Shown: positions 1-56,804, counted from the first letter of the stretch. The stretch: 64,000 bases of DNA from an uncultured Desulfobacter sp. (GCA_963665095.1 OY762069.1:3520001-3584000); one strand, 5' to 3'. The notes: generated from the letters alone by a model not told the origin. Numbers and translations are program-made.

Positions 1-294
1 GCCACCAGAGGGCTTGCCACACGCTGCATCCCCGGCATCAAAGCCAACACGGTGCAATGCCTTTCCCATGTGATGCAGAGCACAGCCCTTGCAACGGTGC
101 TGGTGCCGGTGCTGGGTTATGACCGGGTGGAAGAGATTGTCCGGGCGGCAAAGGCATCTGGCCGCTCCATCCGGGAAGAGATTATCCATCAGGATATTGC
201 TTCCGAAGAGATTGTTGACACACTGCTGTCACCCAAACGGCTCTGCAAGTTAGGCTTTATTCCCGATGAGTTCGATGGGGTAAACAGAAAATGA
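1..294 (+). CDS. aspA: Aspartate ammonia-lyase (fumarase/aspartase superfamily), 3' fragment
   Basis: Frame open from base 1: ...RCIPGIKANTVQC...STALATVLVPVLGYDRVEEIVRAAKASGRSIRE...LLSP, a typical aspartase/FumC C-terminus; aspA is a known neighbour of hydEFG genes. Confidence 0.75.
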   Translation, partial: ATRGLATRCIPGIKANTVQCLSHVMQSTALATVLVPVLGYDRVEEIVRAAKASGRSIREEIIHQDIASEEIVDTLLSPKRLCKLGFIPDEFDGVNRK

Positions 295-341
295 AGTTCA
301 TGACAGGATTGAAAAAGGATTTCCCCTAAGGAGAATTGCTT

Positions 342-1547
342 ATGTCCAGTAAGGCCCCCCGCGGTGTTCGTCTCGTTATTGCGCTGGTTGGCAGGCGCAA
401 TGCGGGAAAATCGTCTCTTATCAATGCCATTTCCGGACAACAGATTGCCATTGTTTCCGACCACCCGGGTACCACCACGGACCCTGTGGCCAAGCAGTAC
501 GAGCTTCTGCCTCTGGGGCCGGTCACCTTTTATGATACAGCCGGGCTGGATGACGAGGGAGAACTTGGCGACCTGCGTGTCAAAGCCACCCGCAGGATTC
601 TGTGGCGGTCGGATGTGGCTGTGGTGGTGGTTTCAGAGCACGGCATCACCGATTATGAAAAAAAGATCATTGATGAAATCCGCGAACTGGAAATCCCCTT
701 TATCATGGTGTTCAACAAGAGTGATTTAAAAACACCTTCTGGCGAAGAGCTTGCCTTTTGCAAGGATAATTCACTGCCGTATATTGTCACTTCCGCCCTG
801 GACGGGGTGAATGTCACGGCGGTGAAAGAGGCGATCATCGACATTGCCCCGCCCGAAATCAAGCGTGAGCCGGTCCTGGCCGGCGATTTGATCAGTGAGG
901 GCGACTGGGTGGTCTGCGTGGTACCCATTGACCTGGCCGCCCCCAAGGGACGGCTGATCCTGCCCCAGGTCCAGGTGCTGCGTGAAATCCTGGACTGCGA
1001 TGCCCTGGGGATCATGGTTAAGGAGAGGGAGATTGACGAGGCCCTTTCGGGTCTGAGCCGGAAGCCCGCACTGGTGATCACCGATTCCCAGGTGGTGATG
1101 AGCGTGGCAGGAGACGTGCCTGAAGATATCCCGCTCACCACCTTTTCCATCCTGTTTGCCCGGTACAAGGGGGATATCGGCCAGCTCATCGCCGGGGCCG
1201 CCGCCATTGATGATCTTAAGGACGGGGACCGGGTCCTCATTGCCGAAGCCTGCTCCCACCATCCGGTGGCTGACGACATCGGCCGGGTTAAAATCCCGCG
1301 CTGGATCAACCAGTACACAGGCAAGGATTTGCATTTTGATGTCTATTCCGGCCACGATTTCCCCGACGACCTGGAGAGGTACAGGCTGGCGATCCATTGC
1401 GGGGGGTGTATGATCAACCGCGTGGAAATGCTGCGCCGGATCAAGGAGTGCCGCCGCCGGGGGGTGGCCATTACCAATTTCGGCCTGGCCATCTCCAAGG
1501 TCCAGGGGGTGTTTGACAGGGTGATAAAACCGTTTGGGAGGATGTGA
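342..1547 (+). CDS. hydF: [FeFe]-hydrogenase H-cluster maturation GTPase HydF
   Basis: GRRNAGKSS P-loop, PGTTTD, DTAG, NKSD, PKGRLILPQ, and Fe-S ligand motifs EACSHH and HCGGC; RBS AAGGAG 8 nt before ATG 342. Confidence 0.95.
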   Translation: MSSKAPRGVRLVIALVGRRNAGKSSLINAISGQQIAIVSDHPGTTTDPVAKQYELLPLGPVTFYDTAGLDDEGELGDLRVKATRRILWRSDVAVVVVSEHGITDYEKKIIDEIRELEIPFIMVFNKSDLKTPSGEELAFCKDNSLPYIVTSALDGVNVTAVKEAIIDIAPPEIKREPVLAGDLISEGDWVVCVVPIDLAAPKGRLILPQVQVLREILDCDALGIMVKEREIDEALSGLSRKPALVITDSQVVMSVAGDVPEDIPLTTFSILFARYKGDIGQLIAGAAAIDDLKDGDRVLIAEACSHHPVADDIGRVKIPRWINQYTGKDLHFDVYSGHDFPDDLERYRLAIHCGGCMINRVEMLRRIKECRRRGVAITNFGLAISKVQGVFDRVIKPFGRM

Positions 1548-3214
1548 TGCCTCCTGGAAAAAGCGGTACTGTTTTTGCCGGCAAGATTTTAGACCCGCCA
1601 CCTTCGGCCCGCCGAAAAATTTTCTGCCCGGGCAATACCCTGATTGTCTGCGCAAGACTGGCCTGCGGGCATGTGGAGGAGGCCTGGAGTTCCGGCCGGA
1701 TGATGCGCAACATGGATCTGCTGCTCCAGGGGGAGCTGGATGAACAGAGTCGTCCCTGTTTTGCCCTTCGGGCCAACGGTCTGTGCAATGCCGGGCATAA
1801 GCTGGCTGCAGTGCGGGCACTGGAAAACCTGGCCGGGATAACGCCGCCCAGAAATGCCTGTCTGGCCCGCAGCCTGGTCCAGGCCCTTCGATGTATTCAG
1901 GAGCATCTGCTCCATTTCTATCAGTTTCACCTCTCCAACTGGACCTGTCTGGCACCGGCCCTGCGGGCGGATCCCTGTAAAACAGCCCGGCTGGCCGAGA
2001 ATTCTGGCCGGGCAACCGGATATTTCAGGCAGTGCCAGCAGCGACTGCAGCCCCTGGTCCAAGGCAAAGGGATCAACGGGTTGGGTCTGCGGGATCATGA
2101 GGATTACTGCGGATCAAATGAGTTCCATCTTCTGGTCTTCAGCCACAGCCTGGAATCCCTCCAGACACAGGCGCTGCTCAACAGGGCGTTAGGGTTGATG
2201 GGCTATGAAAACGGGCGGTGTAAAGCCTATCATATGGGTGGCCTTCCGGAAGATCTGAACCTGGGCGGAAAGGTTCTGCAGCACCTGCGCGATCTTCTTT
2301 TGCAATGCCGGGATTTTGTCTGTTCCGTTTTCCTTAAAGACCTTGAACAGGTGGCCCGAACCTATGGCCATTGGAAAGATCTGGCCAAAGGAAATACCTT
2401 TCTGGCCCTGGGCGATTTTGGCCGCCCCCGTGACAGCGAAGGTCAGCTCTTTCCGGCCGGTATTATCTGTCTGGAAGGGGTGACCCCAAAAATTGATCCG
2501 GTGCAGACCGGCCGGATCCGGGAAGATAAGAACCCGCAATGGAACCGCCTGGACCAGGGACACTACCGTCTGGATTTTGGGGATCATGGCCCTGGATTTC
2601 ACTGGGGTAAAGGTGATTTTCACTGGCTTACAGCCCCCCGCCACGGCAGCCACCCTTGCGAGGCCGGGCCCCTGGCCCGGGTGGCCGGCGCCTTTGCCCA
2701 TGGCCAGAAGGCGGTACACCAGGCGGTCAATGACTCTCTTGCCGCCAGCGGGCTTGAACCCGAAGATCTGAACTCCGCTTTGGGCCGCCTGCTGGCCCGG
2801 GGCATTGAATCTTCGGTGCTGGCCCAGACCACCCTGGCATGGCTTGAGGAGTTGGAGACCTCTCTATCCCCGGGAGAGAGCAGGATGGGCGAAGAGGTCC
2901 GCCTGCCTGCCGCAGGTATTGGCATCGGTCATGTGGAGGTGCCAAGGGGGGCTCTGACCCACACCATCCAGGTGGAAAAAAACAGAATCATCCGCCATGA
3001 CTATCTTATTCCCTCGTTGTGGAATTTTTCCCCGCGGGATTCAAACCAGGTGCGCGGCCCTCTGGAACAGGCGCTTTTGGGAACGCCGGTGACTGATCCG
3101 GATCACCCCCTGGAAATTTTACGCATTGTACATGCATTTGATCCCTGCAACCCCTGTCATGTGGTGGTGGAGGACATGGATTCCGGGAAGACGACTGTGG
3201 TGGATGGGGAATAG
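1544..3214 (+). CDS. Divergent [NiFe]-hydrogenase large-subunit homolog (L1 motif RANGLC, L2 motif DPCNPCH)
   Basis: AWSSGRMMR, EHLLHFYQFH, APRH...EAGPLAR, EVPRGALTH, IPSLWNFSPRD...GPLEQAL, HAFDPCxxC align with group-1 large subunits; start overlaps the hydF stop (GTGA). Confidence 0.85.
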   Translation: MMPPGKSGTVFAGKILDPPPSARRKIFCPGNTLIVCARLACGHVEEAWSSGRMMRNMDLLLQGELDEQSRPCFALRANGLCNAGHKLAAVRALENLAGITPPRNACLARSLVQALRCIQEHLLHFYQFHLSNWTCLAPALRADPCKTARLAENSGRATGYFRQCQQRLQPLVQGKGINGLGLRDHEDYCGSNEFHLLVFSHSLESLQTQALLNRALGLMGYENGRCKAYHMGGLPEDLNLGGKVLQHLRDLLLQCRDFVCSVFLKDLEQVARTYGHWKDLAKGNTFLALGDFGRPRDSEGQLFPAGIICLEGVTPKIDPVQTGRIREDKNPQWNRLDQGHYRLDFGDHGPGFHWGKGDFHWLTAPRHGSHPCEAGPLARVAGAFAHGQKAVHQAVNDSLAASGLEPEDLNSALGRLLARGIESSVLAQTTLAWLEELETSLSPGESRMGEEVRLPAAGIGIGHVEVPRGALTHTIQVEKNRIIRHDYLIPSLWNFSPRDSNQVRGPLEQALLGTPVTDPDHPLEILRIVHAFDPCNPCHVVVEDMDSGKTTVVDGE

Positions 3215-3241
3215 GGCCGGATAAAAAACTGGAAATAACAC

Positions 3242-4255
3242 ATGATGAAACGAAAAAACATATTAGACGCACTGAAAGATAAAGCCGGGCAGGAGGATCT
3301 CTTTGCAGCGGCAGACCAGGTGCGTAAAACCAACCTGGGCGACACAGCCCAGCTGCGCGGCGTGGTCCATTTTTCAAATTACTGCCGGTGCAACGACCTT
3401 TACTGTGGTCTGCTCAAGGATAATCCCGGGTGCAAACGGTTCCGCATGGGTGAAGATGACATTGTGGACACAGCCCTGGCCATTGCCGGCGCCGGCCTGA
3501 AAACCGTGGTCCTGCAGTCGGGTGAGGACCTTTATTACACAAGGGAAATGCTTTGTTCGGTTATTGAGCGGATACTTTCAAAGGCGGATGTGGCCATTAC
3601 CCTGAGTCTTGGGCAGCGGCCCAGAAAGGATTTTCAGGCGTTCCGGGCCGCCGGTGCCCAGCGCTATCTCATGAAGCATGAGACCATGAACCCGGACCTT
3701 TATTCAAGGATGCGTTCGGGCCTGACACTGTCTGACCGGCTGAAGACCATTGATGACCTGCGGGAACTTGGGTTCCAGGTGGGCGTGGGCAATATTGTGG
3801 GCCTGCCCGGCCAGACGATTGCGGACCTGTGCGAGGATATCCTGTTTTTCCAGGATTTCCAGCCGGATATGATCAATATCGGCCCTTTCATCCCCCATGC
3901 CCAGACCCCGCTCAAAGATGAACCGGCCGGGGATATAGAGCTGATGCTCCGGGTGTTTGCCCTGACACGAATTGTCACCGGCAACACCCACATGGCTGCG
4001 GCCAACACTGTGGCCACCCTGGACCCTGAACAGGGCCAGTACCGGGCACTGACCCAGGGCGGCGCCAATGTTATCATGCCCAACTGCAATCCGTTTCAAA
4101 AAAGTAAAACAGACAAAATAGAATATGAGTTTCAGATTACCACCCATAAACGGTATGTGTCCGTGGATGAGGCAAGAAATGTGCTTAAACGGGCAAAGCG
4201 AACTATAGACAAGGGGAAAGGACACTCCCTTAAAATAAAAGGAGACGCGTTTTGA
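3242..4255 (+). CDS. HydE-like radical SAM protein (BioB/HydE family) with atypical cluster motif
   Basis: LRGVVHFSNYCRCNDLYCGL, TVVLQSGED, LSLG, RYLMKHET, VGLPGQT, IGPFIPHAQTPL, GANVIMPN; C-terminus diverges from canonical HydE. Confidence 0.8.
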   Translation: MMKRKNILDALKDKAGQEDLFAAADQVRKTNLGDTAQLRGVVHFSNYCRCNDLYCGLLKDNPGCKRFRMGEDDIVDTALAIAGAGLKTVVLQSGEDLYYTREMLCSVIERILSKADVAITLSLGQRPRKDFQAFRAAGAQRYLMKHETMNPDLYSRMRSGLTLSDRLKTIDDLRELGFQVGVGNIVGLPGQTIADLCEDILFFQDFQPDMINIGPFIPHAQTPLKDEPAGDIELMLRVFALTRIVTGNTHMAAANTVATLDPEQGQYRALTQGGANVIMPNCNPFQKSKTDKIEYEFQITTHKRYVSVDEARNVLKRAKRTIDKGKGHSLKIKGDAF

Positions 4256-5007
4256 TTAAAGTCGCCATATACGGCAAGGGAGGCATTGGTAAATCCACAG
4301 TGACATCAAGCATTTCTGCTGCCTTAGGCGTTCAGGGATACAATGTCATGCAGATCGGCTGCGATCCCAAGACCGATTCCACCATCAATCTTCTGGGCGG
4401 TAAGGCCCTGACTCCCATCCTTCAGTATCTCCAGGAACAGGGACGTCCTGATACCCTGGACGATATTTCCAGGCGCGGGTTTGCCAATACTGTCTGCATG
4501 GAGGTGGGCGGTCCCACCCCGGGGGTGGGCTGCTTTGGCCGGGGCATGCTGACAGCCTTTGAACTCCTGGACGAGATGGGGGCCTATGATACCTGCCGGC
4601 CGGATGTTGTGTTTTACGATATCATGGCTGATGTGGTGTGTGGCGGCATTGCCGTGCCCATGCGCGAGGGGTTTGCCGACAAGGTCTGCATTGTCACTTC
4701 CGGCGAAAAGATGGCGCTTTTGGCAGCAAAAAACATTATAACGGCCCTGCGCAATTTTGCCGACCGCAACTACGCCGAACTTGGCGGGCTGATCCTCAAC
4801 TGCCGGGACATGCCTGACGAAGTGGCGCGGGTGGACGCCTTTGCAAAGGAGATGCAGACCGAAGTGATCGGGGTGATCCCCCGGGACAGGGCCATCCATG
4901 CGTTTGAGGAGGATGGCAAAACCATTGTGGAGGGGGATCAGACCCTGCCCACCTCGGTCTGTTTTTTTGATTTGGCTAAAACCATTATCGGGTTTAAAAG
5001 TGAATAA
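4252..5007 (+). CDS. Nitrogenase iron-protein-like ATPase (NifH/CfbC/BchL family)
   Basis: YGKGGIGKST, IGCDPKTDST, EVGGPTPGVGCFGRG, DVVCGG (both [4Fe-4S] Cys retained); TTG start overlaps the upstream stop. Confidence 0.9.
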   Translation: MIKVAIYGKGGIGKSTVTSSISAALGVQGYNVMQIGCDPKTDSTINLLGGKALTPILQYLQEQGRPDTLDDISRRGFANTVCMEVGGPTPGVGCFGRGMLTAFELLDEMGAYDTCRPDVVFYDIMADVVCGGIAVPMREGFADKVCIVTSGEKMALLAAKNIITALRNFADRNYAELGGLILNCRDMPDEVARVDAFAKEMQTEVIGVIPRDRAIHAFEEDGKTIVEGDQTLPTSVCFFDLAKTIIGFKSE

Positions 5008-5017
5008 GGATATTTGT

Positions 5018-6316
5018 ATGGATCTGGATCAAGCCCGCATCAGGGTTGAACATTTACGCAAGAAGCCGGATTTTCCCTTTGCGCCTCTGGAAGGGGTTGG
5101 CCCGAACCTGGCCGGCTGGGGGGTGATCGAGACCTCCCTGATTCTGCCCGAGTCTGTGGCAGTGATGGTGGGGCCCTCGGCCTGCCTGCGCCATTCAGCC
5201 TTTATGGCCCATGCCAGGGGTTTTACCGAACGCTTTTATATGCTGTGCGTGCCGGAACTGGACATGTCCATGGGTAATCATCTGTCCCGGGTGGAGGCCG
5301 CCATCAAGGATATTGCGGACCGGCGCAGTGAAAAGGTCCTTTTCCTGATTGTGGGGTGTCCGGACTATATCCTGGGCACGGATTTCACAGGCGTGATCAA
5401 ACGCCTGGAGGCATCCACGGGCAAAAAAATAATTCTGGGGGCCATGGCGCCCATTACCATCGGGATGAAAGAGTCACCCTTTACCTCGGCCTATACCTCG
5501 TTTTTTGAGTTTTTAAAGGATGAGCCCCGGGTGCCGGATGACGGGGTGGTCAACCTTTTAGGAACTTTTATGCCGCTGTCGGATGACGGGGAGTTTTATC
5601 AGGTGCTGTCGGCCGCCGGCATGGATACGGTGCTGCAGATTCCCTTGTGCCGGGATCTGAAGCAGTTTTCAGGCATGGCCCATGGCCGGGCCTCGGTGGT
5701 CCTGCACCCCCTGGCCAATGGCCTGAGCGGCAAAATGGAGAAGGAGATGGGCATTCCCGCCTGTTTTGCCCCCACCTCCTACGGGTTTTCCGTGATCCGG
5801 GACCTTTACGGAAAAATCAGCGAGGCTGTGGGAAAACCTTTGGATATTGAATCCCATGAACAGTCGGCACGCAAGGCGGCGGAACCGTTGCTTGAAAATT
5901 TACGCGGCAAATCTGCGGCCGTGGGCTGCAGCATTAACGGAAGCCCCTTTGAACTGGCCCTGTTCCTGGTTCAACATGGTGTGAATGTGGAGACCATTTT
6001 TGCCCGGGGCGCCATCAAACCTTACGAATGGGACCTCATCGAACAGTTGCGCGGGGCAAAACCGGATATCCAGGTATACAATGCCTCCCATCCGGCCTTG
6101 TGCGGGCAGACAACCCCTTTTAACCAGGTGGAGATCGCCTATGGCGTTGACGCGGGCATTTTCTGTGTCAATGCGGCCAATGTGCCGCTGTCACGCTACC
6201 AGGAGCAGAAATACGGGTTTGAAGCCACGGTCTGGATGCTGGAACATAGCTGCGAGGCCCTGGCCAATCCGGTGGACAACTATGACTGGATCTACCGGCA
6301 CAATTTTTTGATATAA
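5018..6316 (+). CDS. Nitrogenase component-1-like oxidoreductase subunit A (NifD/NifE/BchN fold)
   Basis: GPSACLRH, ELDMSMG, VGCPDYILGTD, VNLLG, PTSYG; RBS AAGGA before ATG 5018. Confidence 0.8.
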   Translation: MDLDQARIRVEHLRKKPDFPFAPLEGVGPNLAGWGVIETSLILPESVAVMVGPSACLRHSAFMAHARGFTERFYMLCVPELDMSMGNHLSRVEAAIKDIADRRSEKVLFLIVGCPDYILGTDFTGVIKRLEASTGKKIILGAMAPITIGMKESPFTSAYTSFFEFLKDEPRVPDDGVVNLLGTFMPLSDDGEFYQVLSAAGMDTVLQIPLCRDLKQFSGMAHGRASVVLHPLANGLSGKMEKEMGIPACFAPTSYGFSVIRDLYGKISEAVGKPLDIESHEQSARKAAEPLLENLRGKSAAVGCSINGSPFELALFLVQHGVNVETIFARGAIKPYEWDLIEQLRGAKPDIQVYNASHPALCGQTTPFNQVEIAYGVDAGIFCVNAANVPLSRYQEQKYGFEATVWMLEHSCEALANPVDNYDWIYRHNFLI

Positions 6317-6325
6317 GGATCATTT

Positions 6326-7543
6326 ATGAAAGAATATCATCATCTCCTCCCCCTGGCCACGGGCTATTTCGGGGTCAGTTCGGCGCTCTATGATTTCGGT
6401 GGGTTAGTGGTCATCTACGGGCCTGCGGGCGGTGCATGGCATATCAATATCGAGGATGAACCGCGCTGGTACCGGGGGCCTGCCACGGTTGTCGGGGCAG
6501 GGCTTCTGGAAATGGATGTCATCCTGGGCAATGACGACAAATTCATCAACAATATCGTGAAGACCGCCAAAGGGTTGAACAGCCCGTTTGTGGCCCTGTC
6601 AGGCACCCCGATCTCGGAAATTATCGGGACAGACCTTAAAGGGTTTGCCCGGACCGTGGCAGCCCGGACCGATATCCCGGTGTTCATGGTGCCCACGGCC
6701 GGCTCCGAACCCTATCCCGAGGGCGCATCCAAAGCGCTTCTGGCCCTGGCAGACACCTTTATGGACCCGGATGCCCCTAAACGCCCCAAAGGGGTCAATG
6801 TGCTTGGGGCCATTCATCTTTCCACGGGCAAGGAAGGCCATCTTGATCCTCTGTTCAAAGCGGTTCAGGATGACGGGTTTGAACTGGTAAGTGTCCTTTC
6901 AGCCCCGGTTTCCGGACAGGAAGATCCCCTGGAGGGCGTGCGCATGGCACCGGGAGCCCGGATCAATGCCGTGGTCTCCACCAGCGGGATCGCCCTAGCT
7001 GAAAAAATGTTTGCAGAATATAAAATCCCCTTTGTGGCGGGCATGCCTGTGGGGCTGTCCGGCCGTGACGCCTTTCTGGCCATGCTGCACAGGGAAAGCC
7101 CTGATTTTCAGGTACCAAAGAAAGAAAAAACACCCTATAAACACGCCCTGATCATTGGCGAGCCGGTTCTTGGATATGGGATCCGGCATTGTCTGCGCTA
7201 CGACTTTGGCATCCCAAAGGGGGACGTGGTCTCAGTGACTCCCAGCGATCCACTTTTCAAGGCGTCCCAGGGCCGGGCAGGCCTTTTGGCCGAACGTGGA
7301 CCGGCTGACCTGGACACAGATGACGAACAAGCGATAGCCCAACTCATGAACAACCGGGAAGTGGACCTGGTGGTGGCAGACCCCTGTTACCAGCCCCTGC
7401 TCAAGAATAAGGCCGCTTTCATCCCTGTACCCCATGTGGCCATGAGCGCCCGCATCCATTGGGACATGGACTACGAATACGTTATGGACAACGGTTACGC
7501 CTATCTGGCGTCCTATTTGTCAGGCAATGGCCCCTGTTTATAA
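6326..7543 (+). CDS. Nitrogenase component-1-like oxidoreductase subunit B (NifK/NifN/BchB fold)
   Basis: GVSSALYDFGGLVVI, EDEPRWY, LLEMDVILGNDDK, GTPISEIIGTD, VNVLG, ADP motif; typical partner of the preceding gene in nitrogenase-like clusters. Confidence 0.8.
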   Translation: MKEYHHLLPLATGYFGVSSALYDFGGLVVIYGPAGGAWHINIEDEPRWYRGPATVVGAGLLEMDVILGNDDKFINNIVKTAKGLNSPFVALSGTPISEIIGTDLKGFARTVAARTDIPVFMVPTAGSEPYPEGASKALLALADTFMDPDAPKRPKGVNVLGAIHLSTGKEGHLDPLFKAVQDDGFELVSVLSAPVSGQEDPLEGVRMAPGARINAVVSTSGIALAEKMFAEYKIPFVAGMPVGLSGRDAFLAMLHRESPDFQVPKKEKTPYKHALIIGEPVLGYGIRHCLRYDFGIPKGDVVSVTPSDPLFKASQGRAGLLAERGPADLDTDDEQAIAQLMNNREVDLVVADPCYQPLLKNKAAFIPVPHVAMSARIHWDMDYEYVMDNGYAYLASYLSGNGPCL

Positions 7544-7645
7544 GCAATTCCCCGGGTGCAGCCTGCTGCATAAACTTAAATTTAATTTTCTTATTATGGT
7601 AGACAGGGTTGACTTCAAGGTATAAAAAGCCCCTTCAGCTGCTCA

Positions 7646-9508
7646 TCAACTGCGGCAGACTTTCGGCAAAGGAACGGCCAGGCTTAAATATTTGCCGTTT
7701 TCCTCAAACATCAATTTTTTATCTGTCATCATTTTCAAAAAAGGTGTTACTTTTTCCCGGGTCAATTCCTGAAAATGAAGAAGAATTTTTTCCAGTGACC
7801 GGTGCTGGCCGCAATAGAGATAGACTTCCCTGGAAAGCCCTTCCAGGCGGTGAGTTAAGGGCTCTTTTAAGAGCCGCTTCTGGCGGATAATCATAAACTC
7901 TTTTCCATCCCGATAACTTAGAATCGGCGTATCACCACCGGTTTGATGAATCCGGGTATATGTTTTTTCCCAGTCATGAACTTTTTGTCTCACCGGCCGC
8001 CACAGTTTTTTCTGGTATCCCATGTCACCGCGGTACCTCTGGATCAGAAAGGTCATGCTGCGGTGAATATGTTCCGGAAAAATTTTTGCATAATTGGGAT
8101 GGTTAAAAAGGGCCTTGACCCCAAAGTGCTCTGGATCATTGTATACACAGCTTCCATGGCCCATCCAGAAATGCACCAGTTTGGGAGGACGGAAAACCGC
8201 TGCAAACTCAATGTTTCGGAGGGTTTCATTCATGTCTTCAATATCACTGCCGGGAAAATGAAGTATCAGGTTGGCATTATTGGCAATACCTAAGCCTTCA
8301 CAGTGCTTCATGATTTCCAGATTCTGAATGGCGGTGGTTCCCTTGTTTAATTTTTTCAACAGACGGGAGCTTAAGGATTCGATACCGATCTGTACTTCGC
8401 TGACGCCGGCACAGCTCATTTTTTCCAGTACCCGTTTTGGGGTGGTGGCCCTGAGTTCACAGAAAAGTTTGAGGTCTTTTTTTAATCCGGACAGTTGATC
8501 AAACATCTCCAATGCGGTTTTTACCGGTATGAGGTTGTCCATGAACGTCACGGAAAGTGTGCGATATTTTGAAGTCAGATAATCTATTTCTCTGCTTACC
8601 TGTTCCGGGCCTTTGCACCGGTATCCCTGCCAGTTACGGTTAAGATTGCAAAAAGCACAACCTGAATGTCCTGAGTTGGAAGCCTGCCACCGGCATCCCC
8701 GGGAGGCCTCGGCCGGGAGCGCAGGGAAAAAACTTTTATCCGGCGCTCCTGTTTTCAGTAAATAAAAATAGTCGTCATAATCGGGAGCAGGCAGATTTTT
8801 GAGGTCTGGCATCTGGCCAAAGGTTACCGGGGCTTTACTTCTGCAGGAATGACGCGTAACAAGGCCGGGAATGCGGGAGATAGTATCAGTGTCAGCTGAA
8901 TTGCCAAGATGATGCACAAGGCTGCACAGGGGTCGTTCTCCTTCACCGTTAATGACAAAATCAATTTCCGGGAAAGCCTCAAAAAGGCCCTTAATGGTAT
9001 CTCCGGCAAACATGGAGCCGCCAATGACAATGGGGAGGGTTGGAAAGTTCTTTTTTATGGAACGGATAAAGTACAAAGAGGAGCAGAGCTGGCAAAAGCA
9101 GATTGAAAAGCCTGCCAGGCCCCAGCGATCCCAGTTGATACTGCGGATAAAGTCATCCGCAGTCTCTGCTGCCTGATGTGTGAGGACGTTGAAGTCGGCC
9201 CTGGATGACAGGGGCAGGCCCCTTGCTTCCTTGTGGAACAGCGCCTGGATGCGGTGGAATCGTTCCGGATATAAGAGCGCCGCATAAACGGATTCTGCCA
9301 GCCAGTTTTTTTTAGAAATTTCACGATAAAGGGGATAGCCGATGGCTGTTGCTAATTTCAAATAGAAATGGTGAGCCGCCACCTCAAGATCGGGAATCTC
9401 CCGGTTCAGGTATGCTTTCAGCGCACCAAGCTGAATGGATGGCCGGCTGAAAAGCGGCCAGGGGGCGGATATAAGCGCAATACGTGCTATTTGATTTTTA
9501 GAAATCAT
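7646..9508 (-). CDS. B12-binding radical SAM protein, RiPP-maturation C-methyltransferase type (TIGR03975-like)
   Basis: PWPLFSRPSIQLGALKAYL, GFS...Q, IVIGG, GEGE, PDYDDYF, EASRGC-x11-CAFC, QIGIESLS, KGTTAIQN. Confidence 0.8.
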   Translation of the reverse strand: MISKNQIARIALISAPWPLFSRPSIQLGALKAYLNREIPDLEVAAHHFYLKLATAIGYPLYREISKKNWLAESVYAALLYPERFHRIQALFHKEARGLPLSSRADFNVLTHQAAETADDFIRSINWDRWGLAGFSICFCQLCSSLYFIRSIKKNFPTLPIVIGGSMFAGDTIKGLFEAFPEIDFVINGEGERPLCSLVHHLGNSADTDTISRIPGLVTRHSCRSKAPVTFGQMPDLKNLPAPDYDDYFYLLKTGAPDKSFFPALPAEASRGCRWQASNSGHSGCAFCNLNRNWQGYRCKGPEQVSREIDYLTSKYRTLSVTFMDNLIPVKTALEMFDQLSGLKKDLKLFCELRATTPKRVLEKMSCAGVSEVQIGIESLSSRLLKKLNKGTTAIQNLEIMKHCEGLGIANNANLILHFPGSDIEDMNETLRNIEFAAVFRPPKLVHFWMGHGSCVYNDPEHFGVKALFNHPNYAKIFPEHIHRSMTFLIQRYRGDMGYQKKLWRPVRQKVHDWEKTYTRIHQTGGDTPILSYRDGKEFMIIRQKRLLKEPLTHRLEGLSREVYLYCGQHRSLEKILLHFQELTREKVTPFLKMMTDKKLMFEENGKYLSLAVPLPKVCRS

Positions 9509-9923: not shown

Positions 9924-11651
9924 ATGTTTACCCTAAGCCTTGACCCGTCATTACTGAACAACTGGAAGCTGCCCCTGATCACTGACTACATCAAAAAATG
10001 GGCACAGATCACCCCTGACAACCCCGCGCTGATTGGTGCAGAAAGCGGCGAATCCTTTTCGTTCCGGGAATTTGATGAAAAGATCACCCTGTATGCCCTG
10101 GGTCTTAAGCAGATGGGAATCGGTAAGGGCGATGTGGTGGCAGTGCAGTGGCTCTCTTTTCCGGAATTTCATTTCCTGACCTATGCCTGTGCAACGGTGG
10201 GCGCGATAATCTCTCCCATGGATATACGGCTCACCGCAAAAGAGATCGTACGGGACATGAACCGGGTTTCCCCCAAAGCATTTTTCTGCCTTGGCAATAC
10301 ACCGCTTAAAGATTTCCGGGAAGTTTCCCGGGCAGCCAGGCAGGGTGTGGCCTCGCTCAACTATATTGTCCAGCATACGCCCGGCACCCCGGTTGAAGCA
10401 TGTGACGAGGAGGTGTACGCCTTCAGGGATCTCTTCTCCCTTGAAAAACTTGAAGCCCTGGCTTTGGACAAAGATCTCACCGGCAGCCTTGAAAAAGAGT
10501 ACCGGGCTTTAGACACCCGCGATCCCCATATCATCATCTTTACCACCGGGACCACAGGGTTGCCTAAACCCGCCTTGATCTGTCATGAAAACACCATTGT
10601 CAACAACGCGGTGTTTGCCCGGGAAGTGGGCCTGTACGGTCCGGCCAACCGGTTCCTCAACTCCATGCCCATCAGTCATGTGGCAGGGACCTGCCAGGGC
10701 CCCATGACCGTGTGGATGACAGGCGGCACCATTGTGACAGTGAACGTGTTTGTGCCCCAGCTGATACTGAAATATTTTGAGACCTATCGTCCCACCTGGT
10801 GGGGCGGGGTGCCCACCATGTTCCAGATGATCTGGAGCCTGCCCGAGTATCAGGAGCAGAAGTATGATCTGTCCAGCCTTCTGTTTGTCCTGTACGGCGG
10901 CAGTGCCGTGGACACTGCCTTTCTAAAAGAGATGCAGAAAATGGCCCCCTCCTTTGGCACAGCCCTTGGCATGACAGAATGTGCCGGCTATTTTACAGCC
11001 ACCCCTAGAAGTATCCCCTTGGAGGAGATGGCAGGACAGGTGGGCCAGATTTTCCCGGAGCTTGCCCCTGTGACCATTCGGAAACCCATGAATGAAGACG
11101 GCACGGCCGGTGAGGCCCTTGATCCCGGCGAAGTGGGCGAAATCTGCGTCCACGGCCCCATCGTATTCCTAGGATATTACGGCGATCCCGAAGCAACCGC
11201 AGCCACGATTTCCAAAGAGGGCATTCTTTACACCGGCGACATGGGCTATTTCCACGATTTCGGTGCCTACCGGGGACTGAAGTTTGCCGGAAGAAGAAAG
11301 TTTGTTATTAAGCCCAAAGGGTATCTGGTGTTTCCCGACGAGGTGACGGACTTTATCACCACCCATCCGGATGTGGCCCAGGCCACAGTGGTGGGCGTGC
11401 CGCATAAAATTAATGTTGACGGGGTATTTGCCTTTGTAAAGGCCAAACCGGGGGCAGCGGTTGACAGCGCAGCCGTACTTGCACACTGCAAGGATCTTGC
11501 AGCGTATAAACGCCCCATCCACGTTGAGATGTGGCCGGAAGACAAGCCCTTTCACGTCAACCGGGTGGGTAAAATTGATGTACCGGGCATGATCAAAGAG
11601 GCTGAAATGGTGGTGGAAACCCTGCGATCCAAAGGCAAGTGGGACGAATAA
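9924..11651 (+). CDS. Acyl-CoA synthetase (AMP-forming, long-chain/aryl type)
   Basis: FTTGTTGLPK, LGMTE, GEICVHGP, YTGDMG, YKRP, GKID; strong RBS GGAGG. Confidence 0.9.
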   Translation: MFTLSLDPSLLNNWKLPLITDYIKKWAQITPDNPALIGAESGESFSFREFDEKITLYALGLKQMGIGKGDVVAVQWLSFPEFHFLTYACATVGAIISPMDIRLTAKEIVRDMNRVSPKAFFCLGNTPLKDFREVSRAARQGVASLNYIVQHTPGTPVEACDEEVYAFRDLFSLEKLEALALDKDLTGSLEKEYRALDTRDPHIIIFTTGTTGLPKPALICHENTIVNNAVFAREVGLYGPANRFLNSMPISHVAGTCQGPMTVWMTGGTIVTVNVFVPQLILKYFETYRPTWWGGVPTMFQMIWSLPEYQEQKYDLSSLLFVLYGGSAVDTAFLKEMQKMAPSFGTALGMTECAGYFTATPRSIPLEEMAGQVGQIFPELAPVTIRKPMNEDGTAGEALDPGEVGEICVHGPIVFLGYYGDPEATAATISKEGILYTGDMGYFHDFGAYRGLKFAGRRKFVIKPKGYLVFPDEVTDFITTHPDVAQATVVGVPHKINVDGVFAFVKAKPGAAVDSAAVLAHCKDLAAYKRPIHVEMWPEDKPFHVNRVGKIDVPGMIKEAEMVVETLRSKGKWDE

Positions 11652-16010: not shown

Positions 16011-16335
16011 GATACTTCCTCCCAAATTTATAGTTAGGTGAGATGATCAGGGGTGATAGGGACGGATAAGATAATAGAAAAACGCTTTTTCAAAAATGGT
16101 GTGACAGGATAGGTGGCAGATTCGCGAATCCGTTGTCTACCTTCTTTGATCTAAATAACCAGACTAAAGGCAAGCTCACCCCCTTTCCAACGTCCATTGC
16201 CTTATGCCCGGTTACGCGTTATGAAAACCGGTAAGAAAAATGTTGGCACAAACCCCTTGAATAATCAAGAGAAAATGTTTTCCAAACAATCTTTAATTGA
16301 GATCCGTGATCCGTTCTGGTATAGGAAGTTTCATC

Positions 16336-17634
16336 ATGGCATATATTAATAAACAGATGCTCACGGCTGTGGTGGCGGATGAGGACGGAAATATCTTTGA
16401 GCTGGACGGGTATGCGGCAGCCGGCATGTCCGGGGACGATTTATACATTCTGACCAGATCCGGCACCTGCCCCATGCCCCACGGCAGCGAGCTGATGATG
16501 CTGCCCCACCGTACCCCTGTTGTATTCAACCTGATCACCGATAAATTTGAATCCATTGCAACCAACCCGTATCAGCCGGGCCAGCGCATTTTACCGGTGG
16601 GCGTGTTCAACTCCCCGGGGTATGTGAACCAGCACTTCTGCGCTTATGATGATGATGGCATTCATACACCCTTGCCGCTTTTTTCATACGGGGCAGTGGG
16701 GTTCGGAAAAAATGACTTCAGGTCAGCCGCGTTGCAGGTGGATGATGAACCCCGCCAGGATCTGCGGCTGATGCCTATCGCCGGGGTTCAGAAAGGGGTG
16801 GATAAGTTCAGGAAAAAATATCCGGATAACCGTCTCATGCGCCACCTTGAGACCTGCGCCCTGGTATATGGGTGTCCGGCCGGAAAAAATTTTTTCCTGG
16901 GCCGGTTTGAAGCCCCGCTTCCCACCTCTGTGGTGTGCAATGCCCGTTGTCTTGGGTGCATCTCCCTGCAGACAGACAACAATCTTTGTGCCTGCCAGGA
17001 CCGGATCAGTTTCATCCCCTCACCTGAAGAAATTGCAGGCGTTGCTCTGGAACACATTCTAAAAGTAGACAAGGCTGTGGTCAGCTTTGGCCAGGGATGT
17101 GAAGGCGAGCCCTTAACCTCGGGACAGGCCCTTGAGCAGGCCATTATTCTAATCAGGAAAAAAACGGATCAGGGCACCATCAATCTCAACTCCAACGCCA
17201 GCCTGCCGGATTGGGTGGAGCGGCTGTGCAGGGCAGGCCTTGACAGTATGCGGGTCAGCATGAACTCTGTGCGGAAAACCTGTTACACTGCCTATTTCAG
17301 ACCCAAATCCTATAAATTTGAAGATGTGGTGGAAAGCATCAGACGGGCCAAAGACCATGGCCGGTTTGTGGCCGTCAACTACCTGAACTGCCCGGGATTT
17401 ACCGACTCAGTCAGAGAAAAAGAGGCCCTGTTTGAGTTTATCCGGAAAACCGGCACGAACATGATCCAGTGGCGCAACCTCAACTTTGACCCCCGAAGCT
17501 ATTGCCGGATCATGGAAGATGCGGAACCAGGGGGTGGCCCAACAGGCATGGCGACCCTGATTCAGGACCTGAGCAAAGAATTTCCCCGCCTCATCCACGG
17601 CTACTTTAACCCACCCAAAAAAAACCATAAATAA
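16336..17634 (+). CDS. Radical SAM protein of unknown function
   Basis: CNARCLGC (CxxxCxxC), SFGQGCEGEP, MRVSMNS, MIQWRNLNFDP, GYFNP. Confidence 0.85.
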   Translation: MAYINKQMLTAVVADEDGNIFELDGYAAAGMSGDDLYILTRSGTCPMPHGSELMMLPHRTPVVFNLITDKFESIATNPYQPGQRILPVGVFNSPGYVNQHFCAYDDDGIHTPLPLFSYGAVGFGKNDFRSAALQVDDEPRQDLRLMPIAGVQKGVDKFRKKYPDNRLMRHLETCALVYGCPAGKNFFLGRFEAPLPTSVVCNARCLGCISLQTDNNLCACQDRISFIPSPEEIAGVALEHILKVDKAVVSFGQGCEGEPLTSGQALEQAIILIRKKTDQGTINLNSNASLPDWVERLCRAGLDSMRVSMNSVRKTCYTAYFRPKSYKFEDVVESIRRAKDHGRFVAVNYLNCPGFTDSVREKEALFEFIRKTGTNMIQWRNLNFDPRSYCRIMEDAEPGGGPTGMATLIQDLSKEFPRLIHGYFNPPKKNHK

Positions 17635-52040: not shown

Positions 52041-55000
52041 ATGTTCAAATATATTTTAACGCTTACATTTTTGCTAATAATGCTGTTACTTGGGGCTGGC
52101 TATGGATTTTTCCAGTCAAAAGCAACCCAGATTGAAAACAGGACCTTTGCAGACCTTCAAGATGTCGTAAGAACCAAATCAGATGTTGTTGTCCACTGGA
52201 TTAAGCAAAGGAAAGGGGATGCAAGAATCTGGGGCGACTCAAAAATTGTCGCGGATGAAATTGACGCATTTCTCAGGCAGCCCGATAATCCACAGTTAAA
52301 AAACATCATGCAGTCACAACTGGATGTGATGCTCCGCGCCCATGGCTATAAATCTGCCATGATTGTATCTTTTGACAAAAAAATTGTGCTGGGGACCGAT
52401 ATCCAGTCCGGCATGGGCTATCCCGTATCAGAAGCATTTGAAAAGGCCATGGCATCCGGAAAAATTCAACACACGGATTTTTATATTCACCCCTCCCAGG
52501 ATGTGTATATGGACTGGGTTGTCCCTCTTATCCCTACCGCCTCTGAAAACAAAAAGCCCCTATCCGCACTGATATTACGAATAGATGAAAGTCAGGTCCT
52601 TCTTCCTTTCATAAAGTCTTCTCCGGGGCACTACAATAGCTTTGAAACTGTTTTACTGACATTTAATAAAGGAAATGCCATCTGTCTGACATTACCGTCC
52701 GATGCATCGTCTAACGTTATAAAAAGAGATCCATCCGATCCGAATTCACTCGCAGCCAAGCTTAAAAATGCCGTATCAGTATCCGGTACCGGAATAAGCA
52801 TGGATTTTAAAAAAAAAGAGGTATTATTCGCTTACAGGGCGATTGCGGGTACGCCCTGGCTGATGATTGCCAAAATTGACAGAAAGGAAATTCTTTTACC
52901 AGTGCTCAGGATCGTATGGGGCTGGGGTTTTGCCGTGTTTGCGGGGATTACCATTATCTATTTTGCCCTGTTTCAAAATTTGTATCAGCAGAAAAAAATC
53001 CGGCAAATGGAAATTGACCAGGCCAAAAGAATTGCAGACCAGCGGTTTGAATCTTTGAGCAATAATATACCCGGCGGGTTTGTCTTTCGCTTTACTTTAA
53101 CATCTAAGGGGGAAAGAGGATTTTCCTTCATCAGTCAGGGGGTGCAGAAACTGTTTAATTATTCACCTGAACAAATCATCACGGATCCTTCCCTTGTGCT
53201 CTCACGCTTGGAAAAGAACTCTGAGGCGCTTTTGCAAACGGTTCTGTCACACAGTGCTAAAAATCTGTCCACCGTCACTGAAGAATTCAGGTTTGATCTG
53301 GATAATGGCAGGATTCTGTGGATGCAGTTTAATGCCCACCCTGTCAGGGAACCGGATGGACTCATGGCCTGGGACGGTGCCGGAATCGACATCTCCGGGC
53401 ATAAAAAAGCGGAATACAATCTGCGGCAGAGTGAGGCGCGGTTTCGCAGGCTTTTCAGCGAATCCAGGTCTCCGGTATTTTTGATGGAGGATGAACAGTT
53501 TATTGATGCCAACCCGGCAGCTCTGGAGCTTTTAGGGTATGAGTCCCTTGAAGAACTGCGCGGCATAAAACCGGAAGAGATATCACCCAAATATCAACCG
53601 GACAGAAAACTATCCAACGAAAAAGTAAAAGAGGTTTATGAAAAGGCCTTTTCCCGTGGAAGTCACCGGTTTGAGTGGGAGCATCTTAAAAAAGACGGTT
53701 CTCATTTCTTTGCCGAAGTGACGCTGACCCCAATTCGTTTTAAATACAGGACATTGATTCATGTTTCCTGGACAGATATCACGGAGCGAAAGCAGATGGA
53801 AAGCCGCTTAAAGGAGTTTGAAGCCATTGTCAATTCATCAGATGATGCCATCATCTCCAAAACCATATACGGTACGGTCCTTAGTTGGAACCAAGGCGCG
53901 GAAAAGGTCTTCGGGTATAAGGCGGATGACATCATCGGGCGGTCCATCAAACAGCTCTTTCCCCACGATCTATGGGAGCAGGAGCAGGAAATTTTTGAAA
54001 AAATAAAACAGGGAATCAACATTGAACACTTTGAAACCCGCCGGCTGCGCAAAGATGGCGCCATTATTGATGTATCTGTTACCATTTCCCCAATATATGA
54101 TAAAGACGGGACTGTCTGGGCAGCTTCAAAAATTGCCAGGGATATTACAGAAAAAAAGCAGATTGCCGCATCTCTGGAAGAACAGCGGCTGCAGCTTAAA
54201 ACCCTTGTGGAAGCCATTCCGGATCTTGTCTGGCTTAAAGACATTGACGGTGTGTTTCTTTTCTGCAATCGGCGCTTTGAAGCGCTGTTTGGGGCAAAAG
54301 CCGGGGATATTGTGGGGAAGACCGATTATGATTTTCTTGACAAAAAACTTGCGGATGCGTTTCGACAAAGAGACATGGAGGCGATGCAGGCAGGGCAGGC
54401 CACCATGAACGAAGAGTGGGTCACCTTTGCCAATGACGGGCACCAGGAACTGCTTGAAACCATCAAAACCCCCTTGAAAAATGAGAAGAATGATACCATC
54501 GGTGTTTTAGGAATTGCCCACGACATTACGGCCAGAACCCGGAATGAAGAGTACTTGCGTAAATTTTCCCTGGCTGTGGAGCAAAGCGCCAATGCCGTTG
54601 TGATCACTGGCCGGGACAGCACGATCGAATACGTTAATCAGCGGTTCACTGAGATGACCGGCTATTCCAGAGATGAAGTGATTGGAAAAAACCCGCGCAT
54701 CCTCAATTCAGGGGAAACGCCCAAGGAAACCTATGTCCAGTTGTGGGCGGCCCTGGTGAAAGGAGAATCATGGAGCGGCGAGTTTACCAACGTACGTAAA
54801 AATGGTCAAAAATACTTTGAATTCGCAGTCATTACCCCCCTGCGTGACAAGGATGGTACGGTAACCCATTTTGTGGCGGTTAAACAGGACGTCACCGAGA
54901 AGAAACAGATCGAACAGGAGCTGAGCAACCATCGCCAGCGTCTTGAAGAGCTGGTAAATTCAAGAACAATGGAGCTTGAGGCTGCCAAATTGCAGGCTGA

Positions 55001-56804
55001 ATCCGCCAACCAGGCAAAGAGTACGTTTCTTGCCAACATGAGCCATGAAATCAGGACCCCGATGAATGCCATCATCGGTTTTGCCCATCTGATAGGCAGG
55101 CATATCAAGGATGAGGATGCCCAGGAAATGATTTTTAAGATCATCCGCTCCGGTAAACATCTGCTGGGTATTATTAATGATATACTTGATCTGTCAAAAA
55201 TTGAACAGGAGGCTTTGATATTGGAAAAGACTGCTTTTTTAACGTCCGCCATTATCGACAATGTCTGCAGCATGATACAGGACCGGATTTCCCATAAAGG
55301 ACTTCAGTTGGTCGTCAACACTGATCCAGAGCTGGATGCGATGCCCGTGGTCGGAGATCCTTTGCGCCTTCGGCAGATACTGGTCAACTATCTTGGCAAT
55401 GCCGTAAAGTTTACCGAGCAGGGCCGGATAACTTTAAATGTGATGGTCTCCCAACAGCGCGGCCATGACGTACTGTTGCGCTTTGAGGTTCAGGATACCG
55501 GTATCGGTATCAGTGAGGAACAAAAAAATACGGTGTTTGACTCATTTGTACAGGCAGATGCCCTGATCACCCGAAAATATGGTGGTACCGGGCTGGGACT
55601 GGCCATTTCACGGCAATTGGCGAGATTGATGGGCGGAGATGCCGGCGTTGAAAGTGAACTTGGAAAGGGCAGCACGTTCTGGTTTACCGCTGTATTGGAA
55701 ATCGGTGATCCCAAAGACCTTAAGGCAGATATTGGTGAATCCCTGGCACAATTACGCAAAAATGCCCGTATCCTTCTGGTGGAGGACAATGAGATCAACC
55801 AGGAGGTGGCCAAAGATATCCTGGAACAGCTTGGGTTGTCTGTGGATACGGCATTTAACGGACGTGTGGCCGTAAGAAAAGTGGATGCGAACCAGTACGA
55901 TCTTATTCTGATGGACATGCAGATGCCGGTCATGGACGGCCTGGAAGCCTCCCGGAAAATCAGAGATATGAAGAACGGGGCACATGTTCCCATTGTGGCA
56001 TTAACGGCCAATGCATTTGAGGAGGACCGCAGACGCTGTCTGAAAGCCGGTATGAATGGCTTTGTGGCAAAGCCCTTTGAGCCGGAGCAGTTGCATGCGG
56101 TTCTGTCCCGCTGGATCCCCGACAGTGATGGAATGCAGGATCATATTTACGGGGTTGATACGCTTGAACAATCAGGCGCGGAAGAGAAAAAGGGGGACCG
56201 CAGCCATATTGATCCCACAACCGGATTGAAATATGTCAAAAAAACAGAAACCTATCAAAAAATGCTGGACAAATTCCTTGAGCAGCAGGCGGATCTCCCG
56301 GCGCGAATTAATAGGGCACACCAGGGAAAGGACATGGATTCGGTGCGGCTTATGGTTCATTCTCTGAAAGGGACAGCAGGAACGCTTGGCATGCATGATT
56401 TACAGGCCAAGGCAGCATCCTGTGAAATCCTTCTGCGCAAGGGCGCGGAAGAAAGGAAACTCAAGGAGGGCCTTGTTGCTTTAACCGGGGAATTAACAGC
56501 AGTTTGCGAGGAGATCCGGAGAACGAACCATCGCCCAGATGTTAACCGCCCCGCCACGGAACCCGATGCCGTGGATCTTACCGAGCTCAAATCAATGGTG
56601 GGTCAACTGGTTGACTTCTTAAATCAAAACGATATGATGGCCTATAAGGTATGGGAAAAAGCATACCCTGCTATGATGACCATCATCAACAGGGAAGATG
56701 CAGCACTGTTAAAGCATCAGATTGAAAATTTTGATTTCTCCGATGCCGTGTTAACGCTGAATGACATTATATCGCGTCATCCGGAACAGCTCATGAATGC
56801 TTAA
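52041..56804 (+). CDS. Membrane multi-PAS hybrid histidine kinase with REC and HPt
   Basis: TM-Cache-like-TM, about five PAS/PAC repeats, [36 protein letters not shown]. Confidence 0.93.
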   Translation: MFKYILTLTFLLIMLLLGAGYGFFQSKATQIENRTFADLQDVVRTKSDVVVHWIKQRKGDARIWGDSKIVADEIDAFLRQPDNPQLKNIMQSQLDVMLRAHGYKSAMIVSFDKKIVLGTDIQSGMGYPVSEAFEKAMASGKIQHTDFYIHPSQDVYMDWVVPLIPTASENKKPLSALILRIDESQVLLPFIKSSPGHYNSFETVLLTFNKGNAICLTLPSDASSNVIKRDPSDPNSLAAKLKNAVSVSGTGISMDFKKKEVLFAYRAIAGTPWLMIAKIDRKEILLPVLRIVWGWGFAVFAGITIIYFALFQNLYQQKKIRQMEIDQAKRIADQRFESLSNNIPGGFVFRFTLTSKGERGFSFISQGVQKLFNYSPEQIITDPSLVLSRLEKNSEALLQTVLSHSAKNLSTVTEEFRFDLDNGRILWMQFNAHPVREPDGLMAWDGAGIDISGHKKAEYNLRQSEARFRRLFSESRSPVFLMEDEQFIDANPAALELLGYESLEELRGIKPEEISPKYQPDRKLSNEKVKEVYEKAFSRGSHRFEWEHLKKDGSHFFAEVTLTPIRFKYRTLIHVSWTDITERKQMESRLKEFEAIVNSSDDAIISKTIYGTVLSWNQGAEKVFGYKADDIIGRSIKQLFPHDLWEQEQEIFEKIKQGINIEHFETRRLRKDGAIIDVSVTISPIYDKDGTVWAASKIARDITEKKQIAASLEEQRLQLKTLVEAIPDLVWLKDIDGVFLFCNRRFEALFGAKAGDIVGKTDYDFLDKKLADAFRQRDMEAMQAGQATMNEEWVTFANDGHQELLETIKTPLKNEKNDTIGVLGIAHDITARTRNEEYLRKFSLAVEQSANAVVITGRDSTIEYVNQRFTEMTGYSRDEVIGKNPRILNSGETPKETYVQLWAALVKGESWSGEFTNVRKNGQKYFEFAVITPLRDKDGTVTHFVAVKQDVTEKKQIEQELSNHRQRLEELVNSRTMELEAAKLQAESANQAKSTFLANMSHEIRTPMNAIIGFAHLIGRHIKDEDAQEMIFKIIRSGKHLLGIINDILDLSKIEQEALILEKTAFLTSAIIDNVCSMIQDRISHKGLQLVVNTDPELDAMPVVGDPLRLRQILVNYLGNAVKFTEQGRITLNVMVSQQRGHDVLLRFEVQDTGIGISEEQKNTVFDSFVQADALITRKYGGTGLGLAISRQLARLMGGDAGVESELGKGSTFWFTAVLEIGDPKDLKADIGESLAQLRKNARILLVEDNEINQEVAKDILEQLGLSVDTAFNGRVAVRKVDANQYDLILMDMQMPVMDGLEASRKIRDMKNGAHVPIVALTANAFEEDRRRCLKAGMNGFVAKPFEPEQLHAVLSRWIPDSDGMQDHIYGVDTLEQSGAEEKKGDRSHIDPTTGLKYVKKTETYQKMLDKFLEQQADLPARINRAHQGKDMDSVRLMVHSLKGTAGTLGMHDLQAKAASCEILLRKGAEERKLKEGLVALTGELTAVCEEIRRTNHRPDVNRPATEPDAVDLTELKSMVGQLVDFLNQNDMMAYKVWEKAYPAMMTIINREDAALLKHQIENFDFSDAVLTLNDIISRHPEQLMNA

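Follow-up and report, generated by a model that had tools for sequence, protein, structure and literature searches.

The 64,000-nucleotide (nt) stretch of DNA analyzed here, referred to as the window, originates from an uncultured Desulfobacter sp. (GCA_963665095.1 OY762069.1:3520001-3584000) and raises the question of what a nitrogenase-like protein set might do which lacks most of the cysteines that serve nitrogenases as cluster ligands. Positions 4252-7543 contain three co-directional open reading frames (ORFs) coding for a NifH-like protein of 251 amino acids (aa), a NifD-like protein (432 aa) and a NifK-like protein (405 aa), termed NflH, NflD and NflK in the following. The sequence-only reading of the window had considered this trio in isolation, as a reductase of unknown substrate which is not involved in N2 fixation; actually, the three genes are the last ones of an operon for [FeFe]-hydrogenase maturation in a genome lacking HydG. 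Because this operon is found in bacteria which mostly lack the normally essential maturase HydG, the trio probably contributes to assembly of the hydrogenase active site by a route not yet described, and likely takes the place of HydG. From the genomic evidence we infer that a HydG-independent route to the H-cluster employs NflHDK, with reasonable probability, as a nitrogenase-like, ATP-driven reductase or scaffold. The view that the trio does not fix N2 is supported, and its co-occurrence in one operon with aspA, with hydF and with a variant of hydE narrows the unspecified substrate to a function predicted to lie in the assembly of the H-cluster.

The operon is densely packed in the order aspA-hydF-[NiFe-large-subunit-like]-hydE'-nflH-nflD-nflK, and consists of the following genes:

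1..294, plus strand: 3' end of an aspartate ammonia-lyase-like gene, aspA (Lyase_1, 260.6 bits, plus FumaraseC_C; Pfam)
336..1547, plus strand: HydF, maturation GTPase/scaffold (TIGR03918, 556.7 bits, cut-off 325.55)
1544..3214, plus strand: NiFeL, [NiFe]-hydrogenase large-subunit-like protein (PF00374, 334.9 bits)
3242..4255, plus strand: HydE', HydE-like protein of the radical S-adenosylmethionine (SAM) fold (TIGR03956, 261.7 bits, cut-off 254.6)
4252-5007, plus strand: NflH, nitrogenase Fe-protein-like ATPase, 251 aa (PF00142, 251 bits)
5018-6316, plus strand: NflD, alpha-type component-1 subunit, 432 aa (PF00148, 87.9 bits)
6326-7543, plus strand: NflK, beta-type component-1 subunit, 405 aa (PF00148, 90.7 bits)

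At the junctions read, gaps or overlaps between genes amount to 4-41 nt, with the start of nflH overlapping the stop of hydE' by 4 nt. The ORF listed for NflD, 4898-6316, would run 110 nt into the nflH-like gene; the ATG at 5018, which yields the length of 432 aa found in nearly all homologues, is predicted to be the true start. The whole aspA-like gene (genome positions 3518858-3520294) codes for 478 aa, and the adjacency of aspA and hydF is known from other hyd operons (PMC11736057). HydF, which comprises the dimer and tetramer domains, is the sole match above the cut-off in the genome, and HydE' is encoded by the only HydE-type gene. NiFeL scored below the cut-offs of all NCBIfam equivalogs, and no small-subunit gene is found alongside. 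The genome, a single contig of 6.9 Mb with a completeness of 97.4%, harbors two HydA-type genes. HydG was not found in this genome, the best match to TIGR03955 reaching 47.9 bits as compared to a cut-off of 312. Scans of positions 1-8000 for promoters and terminators returned merely weak consensus matches, which were not used.

The distribution of the trio relative to HydG was surveyed in 151 genomes of the window's family, 201 genomes of Desulfovibrionaceae, and 401 genomes of the phylum (at least 90% complete). Carriers comprised three genomes of the window's family, 21 Desulfovibrionaceae and, from the phylum sample, another four genomes belonging to two other families. Among these 28 carriers, HydA was present in 28 and HydF in 27; HydG exceeded its cut-off in three and was absent in 25. 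Seven genomes of the window's family contain HydF, and these divide into three with NflD only, two with a true HydG only, and two with neither, the latter pair being 100% complete and belonging to one genus; NflD and HydG were detected in three and two of the 151 genomes, respectively. In the Desulfovibrionaceae, NflD was found in 21, HydG above the cut-off in 65, and HydF in 90 genomes, and the 21 carriers included 20 with HydF and three with HydG. The 90 HydF-positive genomes encode HydG only (58), Nfl only (17), both (3) or neither (12); HydG thus occurs in 3/20 carriers versus 58/70 non-carriers, corresponding to a Fisher odds ratio of 0.037 if kinship is ignored. Since completeness was not reported for the Desulfovibrionaceae sample, some of the genomes with neither system may reflect assembly gaps. 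The phylum sample contained NflD in six genomes, namely that of the window, one whose match has the same contig coordinates as that in an already counted genome, and the four further carriers, which are 99-100% complete and all encode HydF and HydA. HydG above the cut-off was found in none of these four, and the best matches (in three of them) scored about 45 bits and coincided with the module's own hydE'. Their hydF and nflD genes are just 1.8-1.9 kb apart, so that only hydE' and nflH fit in between, and hydA is located on the same contig at a distance of 3.5-6.6 kb from hydF.

Gene order supports the same association. All loci examined, among them relatives with 44-50% identity, share the hydE'-nflHDK block in synteny, and this block is often found beside hydF, aspA and hydA. 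The order NiFeL-hydE'-nflH-nflD-nflK is kept in all 13 related genome loci, six of which also show adjacent aspA-hydF; in one locus (L026) the contig ends inside NiFeL, so that adjacency to hydF is undecidable there. Of 14 metagenome loci retrieved, eight were examined: the three close ones contain the same five genes, and the five distant ones (44-49% identity to NflD) contain hydE'-nflHDK. Both distant metagenome loci that extend upstream show aspA-hydF-hydE'-nflHDK without NiFeL. In one of these two, a NikR gene, hydB, two copies of hydA and a gene for an MvhD-like ferredoxin are located directly upstream, and a PIN gene followed by hypF, two genes from the module, is located downstream. 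The constant core is hydE' plus nflHDK, usually together with hydF and aspA; NiFeL does not belong to it, because distant loci keep aspA-hydF-hydE'-nflHDK without this gene. Conserved neighbors were limited to hydE', hydF, aspA and hydA, plus NiFeL in one clade. Two genes downstream of nflK in the window were considered and rejected as parts of the module, as neither the 620-aa radical-SAM gene at 7646-9508 (minus strand, convergent on nflK) nor the AMP-ligase gene at 9924-11651 had a tblastn match in the 13 related loci. A second downstream radical-SAM gene (445 aa) is located at 16297-17634 on the plus strand. Between positions 20000 and 64000, the window contains an ORF of 1587 aa (52041-56804), and stretches of low GC content are located near 22-24 kb and near 42-44 kb.

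The trio itself belongs to the nitrogenase superfamily: NflH exceeds the gathering score of PF00142, NflD and NflK exceed that of PF00148, and the component-1 fold is predicted for the latter two. The single-chain AlphaFold model of NflD (pLDDT 84.7) shows this fold, with a low-confidence stretch at residues 26-33, while in the NflK monomer model (pLDDT 80.4) the invariant segment 35-66 scored below 50. Both segments, the only long low-confidence ones, are situated at the expected subunit interface, which would fit, but does not prove, an ordering that takes place only within the complex. Foldseek matched the models to chains of nitrogenase, NifEN, Mar and dark-operative protochlorophyllide oxidoreductase (DPOR), with E-values down to 1e-15; TMq values of 0.57-0.71 towards AnfK, NifK, MarD, NifE and ChlN indicated no class as clearly closest. 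Scores in a search of 1.84 billion representatives fell from 741 bits inside the family to 261 bits at 34% identity, and the matches following these had about 29% identity. Relatives named in the protein search include two from outside the phylum, Thermodesulfobium narugense and Lebetimonas. In a FastTree phylogeny of 50 rows (SH-like support, several long branches, without labelled Group IV/VI references), NflD falls into a starred clade made up of 33 unnamed representatives and separate from all ten component-1 proteins of its own genome, and all 12 members of this clade that were tested scored below every NCBIfam cut-off.

The observation that the catalytic component retains only part of the canonical ligands was confirmed by the alignments. 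NflD contains N30 (GPNLAGWG), C56 (GPSAC) and C114 (VGCP), each of which is invariant in 70/70 full-length relatives; N30 aligns to the first P-cluster Cys of the NifD protein of the same genome, leaving two of the three P-cluster cysteines. Invariant residues also include H59, H230, H358 and C383. The column corresponding to the cofactor Cys (FeMo-co/L-cluster; NifD Cys275, MarD Cys270) is occupied by L, M, I or V in all 70 relatives, and H230 follows one residue past it. In NflK, the first Cys is indeed residue 289, and the N-terminal motifs that had been pointed out, namely YHH, GPAGG and WH, occupy residues 4-6, 32-36 and 38-39, respectively. At the P-cluster positions of the genome's own NifK, NflK has G13 (75 of 76 relatives), G36 (75/76) and P95 (76/76). 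No Cys column is invariant in the NflK alignment of 76 relatives; complete or near-complete conservation was seen instead for the motif GPAGGAWHINIEDEPRWYR and for H164 and H370. NflH has kept the P-loop GKGGIGKS, the switch regions and both cluster cysteines. Its CFGRG and DIMADVVCGGI motifs, noted before as peculiar, are present as described; they are, however, traits of one clade rather than of the family, since CFGRG and DI(L/M)AD(I/V)VCGGI occur in 17 of 18 close, Desulfovibrionaceae-type loci (the 18th being frameshifted), and all five distant loci show the canonical GLGCAGRG and DVLGDVVCGGF.

Because the ligand positions are fixed or nearly fixed across 70 and 76 relatives, respectively, the Cys-poor pattern is, as judged from these alignments, a conserved family trait and the product of neither chance nor decay. 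A decaying pseudogene set is ruled out by the long invariant motifs, which persist at 43-83% identity and indicate strong constraint on the family. With N/C/C in NflD, G/G/P in NflK and a hydrophobic residue in the cofactor Cys column, predicted cluster ligation by the trio must be non-canonical, as had been proposed. The attribute "unusually" Cys-poor describes the observed pattern correctly but is overstated for NflK, since two more nitrogenase-like pairs encoded in this genome have beta-type subunits devoid of these cysteines; the two-Cys pattern of the alpha subunit is common to a wider uncharacterized clade.

HydE' and NiFeL deviate from their canonical counterparts as well. In all 17 module copies of HydE', the cluster motif reads C-x3-D-x2-C, with Asp at the position of the middle radical-SAM Cys, and most copies possess an extra Cys one to two residues past the first one, which is missing from three of the 17. 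All nine HydE proteins encoded outside the module have the canonical C-x3-C-x2-C motif. Four of these nine belong to HydG-less carriers with a hydE-hydF pair apart from the module, and this retention of canonical hydE-hydF fits a replacement of HydG specifically. Conversely, in one of the three carriers that also possess HydG, a relative with canonical hydE-hydF-hydG, the reading frame of the module's nifH-like gene changes after ...INLLGGQ (L034:8460-9260), which could indicate a pseudogene or, equally, a sequencing error. The NiFeL family shows CxC...DPCNxC in place of CxxC...DPCxxCxxH, i.e., four metal-site cysteines in an altered pattern, and the N-terminal CxC (xAHCLCNDGH) is found in 51 of 53 members. 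As an extra component of the module, NiFeL is confined to one clade: it was present in 13/13 close loci, and absent from the two distant loci that reach upstream and from the four distant genomes. Within the same clade it evolves faster than NflD (41-64% versus 61-83% identity).

A mechanism compatible with these observations can be outlined. The NflH dimer, carrying a [4Fe-4S] cluster on its two conserved cysteines, would hydrolyze ATP and deliver low-potential electrons to NflDK. An interface cluster of NflDK might be bound by C56 and C114 of NflD together with non-Cys ligands from NflK, for which H39, E43, D44 and E45 are candidates, and a second pocket may be lined by H230, H358 and C383 of NflD and H164 and H370 of NflK. 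In concert with HydE', NflDK would produce the CO- and CN-bearing iron unit which is normally supplied by HydG, or reduce it, with the trio providing ATP-driven electron delivery or a scaffold in analogy to NifH with NifEN. HydF would then receive the product, furnish it with the amine bridge derived from aspartate and transfer it to HydA, AspA being the putative source of ammonia. CO and CN might originate from Hyp-type chemistry, and in its clade NiFeL could act as a carrier of Fe(CN)2CO. In the window's genome, hypF (860 aa), hypD and the start of hypE are located at 3506002-3510284 on the minus strand (L025:2-4284), about 8.6 kb upstream of the aspA-like gene; this hypF, the genome's single HypF zinc-finger match, is on the strand opposite to the operon. 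In its most explicit form, which we put forward tentatively as a possibility, the proposal amounts to a second natural route to the [2Fe] subcluster, without HydG and often without canonical HydE, in which NflHDK and the Asp-variant HydE' would assemble a low-valent Fe-CO/CN unit for HydF, using cyanide derived from carbamoyl phosphate and CO from a source other than tyrosine.

Several observations weigh against a trio that replaces HydG. No recognizable CO or CN synthase is encoded among the genes of the module, and the link to Hyp proteins is weak, resting on loose proximity in two lineages. HydE', having Asp instead of Cys, may not perform radical-SAM chemistry, and the NiFeL copy of the window, as the only one among 53, has Gly at the first Cys (RANGLCNAGH) and may be weakened. 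The module is located apart from hydF in six of the 13 related loci. HydG is also present in three of the 28 carriers, and its absence is not confined to carriers, since 14 HydF-positive genomes, i.e., 12 Desulfovibrionaceae and the two complete genomes of the window's family, possess neither HydG nor Nfl. Moreover, the genome counts are not independent, as many carriers are kin. The one locus read from a genome with neither system (L056:1122-12061, from a complete genome of the window's family) comprises hydA, genes for ferredoxins, a sigma-54 activator and an ABC importer, canonical hydE, aspA and hydF, followed by a transposase gene of the Mutator family; neither HydG nor an Nfl module was found anywhere in this genome.

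Some of these points would be accounted for if the trio took part in [FeFe]-hydrogenase biology without replacing HydG, for example as an ATP-driven low-potential reductase for the activation or repair of HydA or of precursors bound to HydF, or in the supply of iron or sulfide, with CO and CN coming from elsewhere. The operon context expected for such a role is identical, HydG has been kept by the three carriers mentioned, and because of the 14 genomes devoid of both systems, some other HydG-free solution, or tolerance of the loss, must exist. Nevertheless, we regard a non-replacing role as unlikely in view of the strong negative association between HydG and the trio (3/20 versus 58/70 HydF-positive Desulfovibrionaceae) and of the lack of HydG in all four complete carriers from two further families. 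A connection of the module to hydrogenase maturation by shared regulation only, with the proteins building or serving a different metal center such as the cofactor of the orphan NiFeL, appears quite unlikely. NiFeL does lie directly upstream of hydE' in 13/13 close loci, most copies retain the four metal-site cysteines in their altered pattern, and the best solved profile relative of NflK is the cofactor scaffold NifE; but distant members without NiFeL keep aspA-hydF-hydE'-nflHDK beside hydA, NiFeL diverges much faster than NflD, and the conserved Cys has been lost in the window's own copy.

The superfamily also offers precedent for a small-molecule or tetrapyrrole reductase unrelated to hydrogenases, comparable to Mar, Isr, CfbCD, DPOR or the proposed Group VI enzymes: according to the accessible text of a 2026 review (PMC13474568), all characterized superfamily members other than nitrogenases are such reductases, among solved structures, MarD is closest to NflD in sequence, and the genome encodes another three nitrogenase-like sets. 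We give this explanation very little credit, since no genes for sulfur compounds, transporters or tetrapyrroles are conserved beside the trio in the loci examined, the ligand sets of Mar, DPOR and CfbD do not apply to NflDK, and the phylogenetic profile of the trio tracks HydA (28/28) and HydF (27/28). A part of NflHDK in HydG-independent H-cluster assembly remains the reading we prefer.

The H-cluster machinery made up of HydE, HydF and HydG is, to our knowledge, considered universal and both sufficient and necessary. If the preferred reading is true, a natural HydG-free route would overturn this universality, provide the nitrogenase superfamily with a new function in hydrogenase cofactor assembly, explain the use of [FeFe]-hydrogenases by many HydG-less sulfate reducers and thermophiles, and supply a new toolkit for heterologous hydrogenase production. 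In a full-text search, outside of which most subscription journals and supplements fall, no paper was found that joins nitrogenase-like proteins with HydE/F/G maturation. The accessible text of the 2026 review of nitrogenase-like systems contains neither HydE nor HydF nor the term "hydrogenase matur", but identifies the uncharacterized nitrogenase-like clades as the main open problem of the field (PMC13474568); for one of these many clades, the present data provide a functional lead.

Comparison with the known systems shows no full canonical ligand set, and scores and ligands place the trio outside nitrogenase proper, CfbCD, DPOR/COR and Mar. That it does not fix N2 is corroborated by a separate, true nifHDKEN set at 4845760-4853470 of the genome, by the absent cofactor Cys, and by scores below the cut-offs of the Nif models: the nifH model TIGR01287 gave 274 bits as compared to 394, and no nifD or nifK model came near its cut-off. 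Instead of the three plus three cysteines of NifHDK, VnfHDK and AnfHDK, the trio has N30/C56/C114 in the D and G13/G36/P95 in the K subunit. Apart from nifHDKEN and the trio, the genome contains three nitrogenase-like H/D/K sets (203560-206844, 254633-258120 and 6139736-6143116), two of which have beta-type subunits without P-cluster cysteines. A further NifH-family frame at 4982808-4983460 is split into two pieces, with a TGA inside one match, and may be a broken gene, or contain a selenocysteine or readthrough site.

Among the reductases, MarD (9FMG, 9D9U) is the best solved relative of NflD, although a remote one (profile E-value 2.2e-15 over residues 77-327, TMq 0.71). Like the trio, Mar is encoded by three genes (H/D/K) and includes an ATP-driven Fe protein; according to 10.1101/2024.10.19.619033, it contains a P-cluster and an [Fe8S9C] cluster. 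Assignment of the trio to MarHDK was rejected, because P-cluster cysteines are missing (two of three present in NflD, none of three in NflK), the MarD Cys270 column is hydrophobic (L/M/I/V), with His230 one residue later, and the module includes no gene of the NifB/MarB type. DPOR and CfbD resemble NflDK in being nitrogenase-like with a single intersubunit [4Fe-4S] cluster (putative in NflDK) and fewer Cys ligands, and BchB offers a parallel to NflK as a Cys-less second subunit; the accessible text of PMC13474568 gives three Cys and one Asp as ligands in DPOR and a symmetric ligation in CfbD. However, NflD has two rather than three cysteines, the gene context includes no tetrapyrrole genes, and CfbD is a homomer, in contrast to the two distinct Nfl subunits. 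Scores likewise argued against DPOR or COR (BchL 164 versus 345, BchN 36.7 versus 420, BchB 17.9 versus 490) and against CfbCD (CfbC, NF033200, 267.5 versus 402; CfbD, TIGR03282, 23.6 versus 268.4 for NflK and no match for NflD). The Group VI NflHDK proteins of Elusimicrobia, compared by description as given in the accessible text of the preprint (10.1101/765248), share divergent D and K subunits short of some P-cluster cysteines and adjacent radical-SAM genes. A tetrapyrrole role has been proposed for them, and the terms HydE, Desulfovibrio and "hydrogenase large" do not occur in the accessible text (10.1101/765248).

The canonical HydE/F/G system has in common with the module HydF, aspA next to hydF, a HydE-family gene, and hydA in the genome, adjacent in some loci. 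It differs in that HydG is missing in 25 of the 28 carriers of the trio, the HydE-type motif is C-x3-D-x2-C, and the Nfl trio, in one clade together with NiFeL, is added. The functional analogy we favor is that with NifEN. Among solved structures, profile comparison ranks the NifE part of a fused NifEN first for NflK (E-value 6.7e-16), albeit as a remote relative: TIGR01283 (nifE) yielded 45 bits for NflK and 21 for NflD at a cut-off of 505, and where NifE has its cluster Cys (GPIACAG), NflK shows a deletion (GP---AGG). Like the role proposed for NflDK, that of NifEN is fulfilled by a pair of component-1-fold proteins which serve cofactor assembly rather than substrate turnover.

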